Part shown: positions 26,046 through 30,020 of the stretch, piece by piece
How the letters are laid out: every line of letters begins with the position of its first letter
Numbering within the stretch: the stretch's first letter is position 1
DNA from: Welwitschia mirabilis
Taxonomy: Eukaryota
DNA length: 49,111 nt
Direction: 5' to 3'
Assembly (NCBI GenBank): GCA_051453625.1
Contig: JBOZIK010000001.1
Location: forward strand, 24,443,599-24,492,709
Made by a program: the position numbers and the translations under genes
Notes under the pieces: model-generated
Told to the model about the DNA's origin: nothing
Databases searched by the model: none
What the model saw: only the letters and a program-made list of their open reading frames with translations

Positions 26046-26061
26046 CCTCCTTCTAGCGCCA
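26046..26061 (-). promoter_or_regulatory. Primer-binding site complementary to plant cytosolic tRNA-Asn(GUU) 3' end
   Basis: Minus strand TGGCGCTAGAAGGAGG, 4 nt after the LTR end ...GTAACA; the plus strand CCTCCTTCTAGCGCCA matches the tRNA-Asn 3' terminus as I recall it. Confidence 0.85.
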
Positions 26062-26065
26062 AAAT

Positions 26066-27506
26066 TGTTACGACTATTTTTCACAATATTATATTTATGA
26101 TTTCGCTTTGATTTTTGAACTTAGTTTAATCGGATGGGTGTTATTCTATTATGCTTAAAATGCGAAAGGAGTTTAAACACTAAAAATTTTACAATAAAAT
26201 ACTTTATTAAAAGCAGTTATAATCAAAACATATTGAGTATAATTTGTATTGTGAATGGCTTTGCAAATAAAGTAATGAAGTAAAAAGATGATTAAAATTT
26301 AGTAGATGCTCATATGGGTAAATACATGTATTTAAATAACTAGCCCAAATGTGATATCATAAATATCTTGAGAATTTATCCAAACAATAGTGATGTAAGT
26401 CTTGATCAGAGTTCTAAATTTAAACATAAGTTTCTTTCATCTCTAAGCTATGCGATAGTGTTTGAAAACTATCCTGTGGACAAGGTTTTTATTAAATTAA
26501 AAGAGAATTGCTATAACTTATTAGCATTAATACCATCCATAATCAAAATGAAAGCTATATTGCCTAAAAGATGGAAAACCGCATGTGTAATTTGTTTTAG
26601 GAAGGAAAAGAAGAGACAATGAAATAACGGGTAAGGGAAGGGTAGAAATAACAAGTAAAGGAAGGGTAGAGAATTTAGATCAATAAAGGAGCGATTGTCA
26701 AATTCTACTCAAGATAAAATGCTTTGTGGCTATGTCTTTCAACCAAGGACAAAATCATTTCTAGATAAGCCTTCGAAATAAGCGCACAATGGAATTTATT
26801 ATTAATCAGTAGTGAAGAGCTATAGATAACGCATAAAAGATTTCATCAGTCATAATGTGTAGAAATAGGGAACTAGAGATATGTATTTTAAACAAACGTA
26901 ATTTCTGATTCCAAAGCTCAAAAGCATATCACAGAATTATAATTACAACTCAGCAAATAACGCACATTGTTTTGAATTTTATGTTTGAACATTCATAGAA
27001 TCATAACGTTGCTATTAGAAATAAGCGTAAAGAAGAACCTGGAGAACTGTCAAATTCTTAGGTAGAATCCTGTGTGTAAATAAAGATCTCTAATACTCAG
27101 TTTGATGCAAGCGAAGTTTTTGGTATCGGAGCGATTGTGCCAATGATTTTTTCTGCTACTTTGAAATCTGTCTCTCGGCGTTTCCCTGGGGTGTTTTTCT
27201 CTCGTGTGCGTCTTTGATCTGTTTCTCTGATCTCGTCGATCTCCCTCCGCTGTCGTCTGTAAGCGTCGCTCTGGGTGTGAGCGCTGATTCTGATGCGTTT
27301 TCTGTCTTATCGCGTTCTTCTGTTCTGTCTCCTCTCCTGATCTGCGATGCGCGTTCTCCTTTCTTGCGTCTGCTCGCCGTTCCCCCCTTGCTGTCGTCCT
27401 CTGTTCTAGCTTTTACTTGATGCGGTACCTTGGCATTTCTTCTGGTCCTTCGCCCTTCTGGCGTTGTCTGCTGTGCTTTGCCGATCCGTTGCGGTCGCCC
27501 TGATGC
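26066..27506 (-). mobile_element. Ty3/gypsy (Tat-like) 5' LTR copy B, its outer end deleted
   Basis: Paralog of 9606-10409 plus 16434-17049, flanked by PBS and gag. Lacks the 384 bp of copy A at 17050-17433, with ATGC microhomology at the junction. Confidence 0.82.
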
Positions 27507-27639
27507 TGCGTGTGAGAACGGCAGCTCTGGAGGTGCATTTGAAGACAACGGAATAAGGAAATTGACCACATTGACAAACTGCGTAGGGAGGCCCAGAGAG
27601 GCAAGGTGCCGTTATGATGCAGGGGAGGCTGAGAACTTG

Positions 27640-27937
27640 TTAAGCCGCATTAGGCAACCCTGTGACAAAGAATGGGGAGCTTTCAACTGGAGTCACCCAC
27701 ACGCAGATTCTGTCTGTGGATTCGATGATATTAGAGACTACGAACAATTTCAGATGCTCCAAAACCGATAGAATATGCAATGACATCTTCGAAGTAGTTC
27801 TTTTTTCTATCAAGTAATCCTTTGTGATTCTCATAGCTTCCGAGAGCCTGTTCATCTTGCCCAATCGAACCGATAGATGTACAAGATTTACACGATTTCC
27901 CCAAGATGCCTGACTGTTCTCATTAAACATTTCCTCT
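27640..27937 (-). pseudogene. Captured WSD1-like wax ester synthase/DGAT fragment, copy B
   Basis: EEMFNENSQASWGNRVNLVHLSV...VSNIIESTDRI..TPVESSPFFVTGLP matches WSD 'EMM..S...WGN.F..LH...SN.IGP.E...HPV....F.V.G.P'. Confidence 0.65.
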
Positions 27938-28170
27938 GCGCCCCGTAATGGGCTTTCCGGACTCTCCAACACTCTTCACCTTTTTGCTGTCTGTCTATGA
28001 CGGTCACGCTGGTTCTCAGGCTTCAGTCTATTACAAGGGCCGTTTCCATGAATTGCTTGCAAAAGAATTAAGAAATGAACATCCATTTTCCAGAGAAATG
28101 GCTGATTGGAATAGAGTGATGTCTGCCTGTTTCAAGAAGATGGATATGGCAGTAGGAGGAATGCGTGTGA
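27938..28170 (+). pseudogene. Captured clade-A PP2C fragment, copy B (4-bp TGTC duplication frameshift)
   Basis: LHLFAV[tgtc]YDGHAGSQASVYYKGRFHELLAKEL...WNRVMSACFKKMDMAVGG. Confidence 0.88.
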
Positions 28171-28185
28171 TTCACAAAGAGTAAA

Positions 28186-28342
28186 TCATAGCAGCCAATA
28201 TTCCTCACGTTCTCAACTCCTCTTCAGGAGAGCCATTCAAGCCATGCGATGCCCGAAAGCACGCCTGAAATGGAACGAACTTGACCTGGATGAGTAACAC
28301 AGTTTGCTGCAGGAACCGTGGACTGAACCAATGTCGAGCAAC
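28186..28342 (+). repeat. ~155-bp extra copy of the F-box 5' segment (other copy from 29373)
   Basis: ATCATAGCAGCCAATATTCCTCACGTTCT...GAACCAATGTC occurs twice in copy B with several differences, and once in copy A (~18157). Confidence 0.85.
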
Positions 28343-28442
28343 NNNNNNNNNNNNNNNNNNNNNNNNNNNNNNNNNNNNNNNNNNNNNNNNNNNNNNNNNN
28401 NNNNNNNNNNNNNNNNNNNNNNNNNNNNNNNNNNNNNNNNNN

Positions 28443-28733
28443 ATGCCCCTGGACAGGACTTGAGTCCCATTCAGAGCATCGACAAACCAGCCTTCTTTTT
28501 TAGCGCTATCCAAGAAAGGACCAAGGCTAGAACTATTGCTACTAGAATCCTTACCAGCCTTCTTTTTTAGCGCTATCCAAGAAAGGACCAAGGCTAGAAC
28601 TATTGCTACTGAAATCCTTAAGTTTAGCAGGAAATAGGAAAATTCGTAACCTGCGTTGCTTGCTGTTGGACTGCTGCTATTGCTGCTCTAGTCTATCATA
28701 CTCCATCATGTTCTCTAGGTCTTCGTCGGTCAA
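28443..28733 (-). pseudogene. Captured fragment of a plant PB1 (octicosapeptide/Phox/Bem1p) domain protein, copy B only
   Basis: LTDEDLENMMEYDRLEQQ*QQSNSKQRRLRIFLFPAKL then SLGPFLDSAKKEGWFVDALNGTQVLSRG follows the family pattern 'TDEDLENMxEEYDR...RLRLFLFP...GSLLD.AK.E.WFVDALNG'. Confidence 0.85.
28486..28620. repeat. 67-bp tandem duplication frameshifting the PB1 fragment
   Basis: ACCAGCCTTCTTTTT(T)AGCGCTATCCAAGAAAGGACCAAGGCTAGAACTATTGCTACT at 28486 and 28553. Confidence 0.9.
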
Positions 28734-29164
28734 AAGCGCAAGACGAATTGGTCATCATCAACACTACACGAATCGCCCTGCAATCAAACCAAACATAGAT
28801 GCACGAAGATTTATCAAAAAAAGATCTAATTAAATAGAGGAAAAAGTTGAAGAAGTTAACGCAGCTATAGTACCACAAGCCAGTGGACAGAGAAGGCGGA
28901 AGAAAGCGCATCGGGCGCTCCGTTAAGAGTCTAGACTTTTTGCACAAAAGTCAGTCCCGAAAGAATTCGCTGTTAATGGGCATCGTCAATAACAAGTTCC
29001 AAAGAATGAAGAGTGTATCATGCTATAATGCATTAACACATGACATGTATAAAAGGCAGGACTTACATATATATATATATATATGACAAATGTATGACAT
29101 GCATCACTTGTCCTTCTCATTTTATAAGAGATTGAAGGTTCTTTACCCTGGTTCTTTATTTTAT

Positions 29165-29360
29165 CCAATAAATTTTTAAGGTCTTATAAATGTAATTGAG
29201 GAAAATTCCAATTCCAATCTTCAGTTTCATACGTGCATAATGTAAGTTAAATACAGTCGGCCACCCAATAAATTTTTAGGCTCTTATAAATGTAATTGAG
29301 GAAAATTTTAATTTCAATGTTCAGTTTCATACGTGCATAATGTAAGTTCAATACGGCCAC
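29165..29360. repeat. Two tandem ~100-bp repeats
   Basis: CCAATAAATTTTTA.G.TCTTATAAATGTAATTGAGGAAAATT...TACGTGCATAATGTAAGTT...GGCCAC at 29165 and 29265. Confidence 0.9.
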
Positions 29361-29426
29361 GTCGTTGACGTTATCATAGCAGCCAATATTCCTCACGTTC
29401 TCCTCTTCAGGAGAGCCATTCAAGCC

Positions 29427-29760
29427 ATGCGATGCCCGAAAGCACGCGTGAAATGGAACCAACTTGACGTTGGTGAGTAACACAGTTTGATGCAGGGACC
29501 GTGGAGTGAACCAATGTCAAACGACGGAGCACGTTCTGGTTTTAACATCCACGGCGCAACGCCTCAAGATGCAGGTCTTAATAACAACGGGGCGGAGACT
29601 GATGTATTGATTCCCCGCTTGCCAAATGAATTAGCTGCGCAATGTATAGCGATTTTGCCTTGGTCCTCCATAACTGCTGCGCGTAGAGTTTGCAGAGCCT
29701 GGAGGCGTCTGGTGGGAATTGGATTGCTGCGAATGTAAGCGAGCCGGCGACGGGCAAGTA
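29427..29760 (+). pseudogene. Captured F-box(/kelch) gene 5' fragment, copy B
   Basis: [36 protein letters not shown] is the plant F-box/kelch-type F-box (LIPGLPDE.A..CL.R.P.....R.VCR.W). In-frame ATG at 29427, stop at 29478. Confidence 0.85.
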
Positions 29761-29763
29761 AAC

Positions 29764-30020
29764 TCAAGCTCTTGCTCGAAGTCCAAGGCCACGTATGCCA
29801 GCTTTTCCTTGATGTCTCTCACAATTTCCCGTTCTGCTGAGGTGGTGAAAGAGTACGCTCCCTGTGAGGATTTTCATGAGGTAGTCGGTGAGGTCTCGCC
29901 CAGCGAGATGCAGCCTCAGAATGGCGTGGGGCAGAGAAAATCCTTCGTAAACAGGTACTGTGTGACTTACACCGTCCCCAGAGTCCAGCACGATTCCTGT
30001 AGTATGAGCGCTGGCGTAGA
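29764..30020 (-). pseudogene. Captured actin fragment (approx. residues 143-228), copy B, frameshifted and intronless
   Basis: [52 protein letters not shown] / [31 protein letters not shown]. Confidence 0.96.

Follow-up and report, generated by a model that had tools for sequence, protein, structure and literature searches.

Host-gene fragments beside a long terminal repeat in Welwitschia mirabilis look like a local pair and not a mobile family

We analysed a 49,111-nucleotide stretch of Welwitschia mirabilis DNA (contig JBOZIK010000001.1, positions 24,443,599 to 24,492,709; the window), which is AT-rich, gene-poor plant DNA with six N runs and few long open reading frames (ORFs). In this window a cassette of short pieces of unrelated host genes adjoins a long terminal repeat (LTR)-like repeat, and repeat and cassette occur together twice, as copy A (9606 to about 20583) and copy B (26066-30020). 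The explanation that we favour, and to which we give about an even chance, is that the cassette derives from the interior, now decayed, of a non-autonomous LTR-retrotransposon-like unit, the patchwork of gene pieces having been built once and the unit then doubled locally by an LTR-mediated event. The cassette is an old, frameshifted, single-locus relic, silent in the RNA runs examined, and LTR elements with several host-gene pieces are already well known.

Self-BLAST of the window showed that A and B form a direct repeat with 78-87% identity. The paired segments were as follows (A first, then B).

9605-10409 with 26065-26889
16429-17049 with 26885-27506
17430-18309 with 27503-28338
18156-18388 with 29373-29599
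19976-20426 with 29600-30020

Both copies have the same orientation and are separated by 16.5 kb, or by about 8.9 kb after subtraction of the elements nested in A. On the left, both start at exactly the same base, with TGTTACG, and the sequences outside that edge are unrelated. The repeated unit, in direct order, comprises the LTR and about 3-4 kb of patchwork next to it, a geometry that is equal under either orientation of the LTR. On the right side, actin in A continues for about 160 bp past the point at which B stops (30020). Copy A holds an extra 380 bp at 17050-17429, and the piece of a PB1 gene present in B is absent from A. An original prediction, made from the sequence, had described the LTR and cassette as present twice, with A devoid of PB1, and this description was borne out by the self-BLAST and by the tool-based fragment identities given below. 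Its statement that the cassette is LTR-linked held to the extent that the unit begins exactly at the LTR terminus and carries a primer-binding site (PBS) motif. The features of copy B and its left flank were the following.

24900 to 26061, minus strand: left flank of B; the sequence is repeated at high copy, contains a gag-like ORF, and has a 16-mer starting TGG at 4 nt from the LTR edge
26066 to 27120: LTR-like repeat starting TGTTACG, with a sharp left edge common to A; multi-copy in DNA contigs
27121 to 27132, plus strand: initiator-methionine (iMet)-type PBS motif; the nested copia-like element has exactly this variant
27133 to 27506: CT-rich stretch (purine-rich on the minus strand) from the PBS motif to the cassette, across which contig depth drops from 14-17 to 7
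27646 to 27930, minus strand: WS/DGAT C-terminal (WSD1-like) fragment, frameshifted; it may extend to about 27507
27931 to 28163, plus strand: PP2C fragment, its ends set where parent-mRNA reads leave the cassette
28185 to 28342, plus strand: X, an upstream portion of the F-box fragment, duplicated and cut by the N gap
28343 to 28442: assembly gap of 100 N
28445 to 28742, minus strand: PB1-gene fragment, residues 107-184 of protein P0001, with an internal 68-bp tandem duplication; in copy B only
28743 to 29374: remainder of the B-specific insert, in which part of a repeat, a microsatellite and 90 bp duplicated in tandem were seen
29375 to 29735, plus strand: X′ and the F-box fragment, with the F-box domain at about 29610-29714
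29769 to 30020, minus strand: actin fragment, frameshifted and joined at 30020 to an unrelated repeat

Copy A is built from the same parts and is interrupted by two nested elements.

9606 to about 20583: copy A, comprising the LTR-like repeat and PBS motif, the WSD, PP2C and F-box pieces, and an actin piece that is longer than in B (reaching about 20583); interrupted by 10410-16431 and 18391-19975
10410 to 16431, plus strand: nested 6.0-kb LTR element; its ends are TG..CA, its 5-bp target duplication is ATTTT, and its 197-bp LTRs are 94% alike
16661 to 16672: iMet-type PBS motif of A
[quoted passage not shown]

The reading of one ORF only suggests that the 10410-16431 element is copia-like.

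All five fragment identities in the original prediction (WSD1-like, PP2C, PB1, F-box and actin, in alternating orientation) were supported by at least one search tool. In B the orientations are -, +, -, +, -, and every fragment carries frameshifts or stops. Pfam identified the F-box piece of B (E = 2e-5) and its actin piece (E = 4e-16 and 6e-4), and also found actin in A. Pfam found nothing in the WSD-like ORFs of either copy and a word-indexed homology search with the WSD-like ORF was empty; only an exhaustive HMMER search matched the ORF, at E = 1.1e-11, to P0002, a 160-residue protein in which Pfam detects WS_DGAT_C at 3.7e-24. The tblastn alignment to B (27930-27646) involved residues 1-111 of P0002, and that to A (17884-17588) residues 1-107. 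The second HMMER match to the same ORF, the tetratricopeptide (TPR) repeat protein P0003, was dismissed as spurious. P0002 consists of the WS_DGAT_C domain alone, and its start Met falls where the captured WSD piece begins; the piece may correspond to a whole short transcript or to a terminal exon.

The PB1 fragment was identified through P0001, a protein of 814 residues in which Pfam detects a PB1 domain (4.6e-20) and which is 81% identical to the fragment. Its residues 107-184 correspond to 28742-28445 and run into the N gap; Pfam did not detect the PB1 domain in the fragment itself. A phmmer search of the PDB with the PP2C ORF gave a best E of 1.5e-5, and plant PP2Cs made up 31 of the 38 listed sequences, mostly the abscisic acid (ABA) co-receptors HAB1, ABI1, ABI2 and OsPP2C50. 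The other seven matches were weak (E ≥ 0.3), being six animal PPM1A/PP2C entries and one plant PP2C 37. Thus the proposed clade-A PP2C stood as a plant PP2C, and its clade goes no further than those PDB matches; the plant PP2C structures in the PDB are presumably mostly of clade A.

The WSD and PP2C pieces meet head to head at 27930/27931 with zero spacer, in keeping with the earlier description of a cassette tiled almost without spacer. That description failed for the PB1 segment, which adds about 630 bp of non-genic AT-rich sequence. As both the WSD/PP2C and the F-box/actin junctions are common to A and B, we conclude that the four-gene chimera predates the duplication, as had been predicted.

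Copy number and expression were assessed with public reads. Two DNA contig sets (X1 and X5) and two RNA-seq runs (X15 and X18) were aligned to 25500-30600 at ≥80% likeness. The X1 contigs that match B near-perfectly had a depth of about 2.9, which corresponds to a single copy. Summed X1 depth was 1400-2900 in the left flank (25500-26012), 18-90 in the LTR-like part, 14-17 at 27039-27380 and 5-13 in the cassette, excepting the gap bin and two repeat-containing bins. By this rough measure, the cassette is present at about 2-4 times single copy with the parent genes included, and part of the LTR at about 30 times. As LTR depth was 18-90 compared to 5-13 for the cassette, the LTR is a moderately repeated family and the cassette exists in about two copies. 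The depth of 9.8 at 27940-27980 was made up of B's own contig (2.9) and one contig of depth 6.9; the latter shares alleles with the RNA reads and is therefore the parent gene. The WSD/PP2C junction was crossed by a 1025-bp X1 contig that spans 27089-28113 with one difference. Judged by contig depth, and with the two copies only 16.5 kb apart in the same orientation, A and B look like a local pair rather than members of a mobile family. This result speaks against the predicted gene-capturing mobile unit and corresponds to the local duplication that the prediction itself had named as evidence against it. Beyond the cassette, the repeat at 25500-26086 is very high-copy (summed contig depth of 1400-3300 versus about 3-6 for single copy), and other genomic copies show short tandem repeats of the 26046-26103 unit, with joints that go back 58.

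RNA reads covered the PP2C piece (27931-28163), the PB1 piece (28443-28731), the stretch 28876-28914 and actin from 29769. At nearly every diagnostic site these reads carried the non-cassette allele, e.g. 51 of 52 and 62 of 62 reads at 27940, and the cassette's own alleles appeared in at most 1-2 reads at a few of the listed PP2C sites in the two runs. Moreover, the reads left both ends of each piece into parent-matching sequence, and the loose end at 28443 encodes P0001 residues. The cassette thus looks silent, and its parents expressed, in both RNA runs. No chimeric transcript of the predicted kind was seen, as the reads carry parent alleles and run into parent exons. The proposed pairing of drought-related genes (wax and ABA) likewise found no backing other than co-occurrence alongside actin, F-box and PB1 pieces.

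About 1 kb of B (28339-29372), including the 100-N gap, is without counterpart in A. This insert is flanked by a direct duplication, X (28185-28342) and X′ (29375-29518), whose two members differ at about 7% of sites, with a Kimura two-parameter (K2P) distance of 0.077 and 6 transversions in 151 sites. At the sites where X and X′ differ, A sides with X at five and with X′ at five, and the two kinds are interleaved. Such a pattern indicates that A is not a recombinant that lost the insert, and that the X duplication and the PB1 insert arose on B's lineage; gene pieces would then be able to enter the locus without a transposition cycle. On these comparisons, the PB1 piece entered B in place, duplicating at least 158 bp of flank, and the PB1 segment and the X duplication probably arrived soon after the split of A and B. 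RNA reads of another transcript match a 39-bp stretch at 28876-28914, and a repeat-like stretch at 28920-29090 also draws RNA reads. The presence of foreign-transcript and repeat-like stretches within the B-specific insert suggests that the insert is itself a small mosaic.

We also considered that the PB1 segment, lying beside the N gap and between X and X′, is an assembly artefact. The gap at 28343-28442 falls within the PB1-bearing insert, the bin at 28236-28406 had a depth of only 1.2 in X1 and 0 in X5, and one contig per DNA run connects 28162 directly to 29373. However, the connecting contig may be copy A, the difference of about 7% between X and X′ does not fit a collapsed overlap, and contigs covering 28581-29023 (5 differences) and 29017-29429 (0 differences) bridge the insert into X′. 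In addition, contig depth leaves no room for a third locus. An artefact is therefore very unlikely, with the proviso that X1 is possibly the sample behind the assembly, in which case its contigs are not independent support for the insert.

Comparison of A and B gave K2P distances of 0.10 in the AT-rich part of the LTR and 0.17-0.28 elsewhere, with 2-6% transversions. The LTRs of the nested elements were separated by 0.064 (copia-like) and 0.144 (TRIM-like). The order of nesting agrees with the divergence, and the nested elements are younger. Decay was one-sided; at 281 sites in the summed A/B rows an A or T of copy A stands opposite a G or C of copy B, compared to 59 sites of the reverse kind, which indicates that copy A decayed far more by C>T change.

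The proposed LTR was examined through its PBS motif. With up to 2 mismatches allowed, a 12-base iMet-type motif occurred 8 times in the window, where about 3 were expected, and 0 of 100 shuffles reached 8. Three of these eight matches sit 0-4 nt past 5′ LTRs, those of the two nested elements and of an element at 39.7-46.4 kb, and two more are the motifs of A and B. The motif of B has one mismatch to what we take to be the tRNA-iMet consensus. Since such motifs lie past the 5′ LTRs of other elements, this distribution supports the assignment of 26066 to about 27120 as a putative plus-strand LTR with a primer site after it. The two LTR-like copies are direct repeats starting TG, each followed by the same cassette, and do not form a simple LTR pair.

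According to the favoured explanation, the unit would have consisted of the LTR, the PBS, the CT-rich stretch and, in place of gag-pol, the patchwork. The latter would have been assembled from short host-gene pieces (WS/DGAT, PP2C, F-box and actin), each collinear with mature mRNA and abutting the next in one orientation or the other. LTR and patchwork would then have been doubled locally via unequal LTR exchange, or via template switching giving a complex element with a shared LTR, and not by transposition to independent sites. Subsequently, A would have received two LTR-element insertions and undergone strong C>T decay, and B would have gained the PB1 piece in place, with its flank duplication, and had its right part deleted. 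In 38 X5 contigs the neighbouring repeat extends further left at 30016-30021, in a sequence that they share (agreement 0.74), which indicates that B ends at a junction of two truncated sequences; a six-frame Pfam search of 30021-35002 found no actin to the right of B.

Several observations weigh against this explanation. The PBS motif of B lies 11 nt past the nearest CA, compared to 0-4 nt in the other elements. No polypurine tract was found abutting 26066, whereas the TRIM-like and 39.7-46.4 kb elements have GGGGGAG-type tracts, and the window contains neither a 3′ LTR nor a third LTR. A simple tandem predicts homology between 20427-26064 and 30021-49111, but there was none beyond two weak hits, so that the later deletion has to be assumed. 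The copy number, being contig depth summed at the 80% threshold, is indirect and approximate. Finally, the left flank of B hints at an LTR on the minus strand, for the TGG-starting 16-mer (26061-26046) is followed on that strand, about 650 nt further on, by the gag-like ORF, and high-copy flank contigs enter the LTR by 16-20 nt.

These last features lead to a different explanation, in which a single gypsy-like element on the minus strand extends from 9606 to at least 30020, with B as its 5′ and A as its 3′ long terminal region, and in which reverse transcription itself doubled a patchwork located either within a much lengthened U3 or immediately upstream of the LTR. On the minus strand the LTR ends in CA, and the 16-mer, which is unique in the window, follows after 4 nt. 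Retrotrans_gag was the family in 29 of the 30 Atlas matches to the gag-like ORF (score 0.94), an assignment to be read with the caution that a wrong or opposite frame can score the same family. Flank contigs reach 26081-26086 and LTR-family contigs reach 26046, so that their overlap is exactly the 16-mer plus the LTR tip. The outer flank of A is unrelated sequence, the stretch beside the LTR is purine-rich on the minus strand, and a purine run followed by TG occurs at about 21084-21098. However, the highly non-random plus-strand iMet motif is left unexplained. Neither Pfam nor a homology search gave a match for the gag-like ORF. None of the frames of 21090-26071 showed a pol domain, and reverse transcriptase, RNase H and integrase went undetected on the minus strand of 20430-24952, so that the RT-RNase H-integrase order of Ty3/gypsy, the type to which the original prediction had assigned the LTR, was not seen. 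A progenitor copy elsewhere is predicted, but depth shows about two copies, and the outer end of B is missing from the window. We regard the minus-strand element as rather unlikely. The plus-strand PBS and the minus-strand flank nevertheless give conflicting orientations for the LTR, which the available data do not reconcile.

A plain segmental duplication of pseudogene debris beside an LTR, with the patchwork produced by break repair with filler DNA and no retrotransposon involved, would account for there being only two adjacent copies and for the in-place entry of the PB1 piece, with flank duplication, outside any transposition cycle. Filler insertion during plant repair is documented, although the fillers reported in PMC4423477 average 13 bp (1-123 bp), compared to pieces of 230-500 bp here. 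As the duplication begins at the first base of the LTR in both copies, and as the PBS motif sits between LTR and cassette, we consider this origin improbable. Still less probable, and indeed hardly to be expected, is that A and B belong to a truly mobile capturing family of the LTR, Helitron or Pack type with more copies elsewhere. The unit does open with an LTR terminus and PBS motif, depth in the WSD region is about 4 times single copy, and two contigs besides that of B are present at 27906. Yet the cassette as a whole reaches only the 2-4 times noted above with parents included, only B and the parent are seen at the PP2C piece, and both copies lack a second LTR. Terminal inverted repeats, as would be expected for the Pack-MULE type of capture raised in the original prediction, were not found around B; no inverted pair was returned by a search of the whole window with seed 14, nor by one of 25000-31500 with seed 10 and a minimum length of 30. 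The left edge, TTGTTACG, does not have the features of a Helitron terminus.

Within the favoured explanation, the manner in which the pieces were joined can only be inferred. Collinearity with mature mRNA extends over 230-500 nt in each piece. Plant actin genes, we assume, usually have an intron near codon 150, and the actin piece of A crosses this site without one; a literature search on plant actin intron positions found nothing. The intron-less, mRNA-collinear pieces hint at cDNA templates. Template switching between sense RNAs during minus-strand synthesis would yield one orientation only, unlike the mixed pieces observed. Mixed orientation together with a zero-spacer junction is better fitted by end-joining, or by repair synthesis from cDNA or DNA pieces. 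In an extended form of this idea, which we find improbable, the retrotransposon interior served as a repeated trap for intron-less cDNA pieces of at least five expressed host genes, joined in random orientation beside the PBS, with PB1 arriving after or during the copying of B. Were it true, a retroelement reverse transcriptase would make host cDNA that is ligated into the element or its breaks, and small RNAs from the sense and antisense pieces could contribute to silencing the parents, an expressed PP2C among them.

Captures of host-gene pieces by LTR elements are common in plants, as described for Bs1 of maize and in surveys of rice and sorghum (PMC13317346, PMC3726574). As in those accounts, the interior at the present locus holds several unrelated host-gene pieces instead of gag-pol. 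Unlike them, the pieces here alternate in orientation, are frameshifted and were silent in two RNA runs, and there is one LTR per copy and about two copies. Sabot and Schulman (2007; PMC1950507) describe complex LTR insertions that share an LTR and arise by element recombination or by template switching in reverse transcription. The order LTR-interior-LTR-interior in direct orientation resembles the complex elements of that paper; it differs in that there is no third LTR here, the second interior ends at 30020, and the interior is a non-coding patchwork. In the filler DNA and synthesis-dependent strand annealing of plant double-strand breaks, foreign segments are copied in and are sometimes chimeric (PMC4423477). 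The in-place arrival of PB1 with flank duplication fits such an event, whereas the pieces here are much longer and seemingly exon-only, which would point to cDNA templates, though without proof. Pack-MULE, Pack-CACTA and Helitron captures likewise pack several gene fragments in mixed orientation, but the present unit has no terminal inverted repeats, and its defined end is an LTR-type TG terminus.

The locus offers a clean, datable example of the building and later erosion of gene-fragment mosaics in plant genomes, with a chimera that formed, was doubled by an LTR-linked event and then took in a further piece in place. If its pieces are cDNA-derived, it bears on whether retroelement enzymes supply host cDNA to break repair. 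There was no sign of expression or spread, and an effect on the parents (wax ester synthesis and PP2C signalling) is unsupported.

The remaining observations concern other repeats of the window. Within the nested 6-kb element, 13264-14232 is an open frame of 322 codons that is GC-rich (about 50%), strongly C-skewed and of low complexity, and the nested small LTR element contains a 122-bp tandem repeat in 3 copies (19065-19430). Just right of B, at 31749-33163 on the plus strand, remnants of a copia-type integrase C-terminal domain (SH3_retrovirus) and of an RVT_2 reverse transcriptase were present; no LTR pair was found for them. A further LTR retrotransposon occupies 39703-46394 on the plus strand, with LTRs at about 39703-40813 and 45363-46394 that are about 80-84% alike; an iMet-type primer site lies at 40817, and a polypurine tract precedes 45363. 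Near the right end of the window, a 93-bp tandem repeat is present in 3 copies at 48513-48791.

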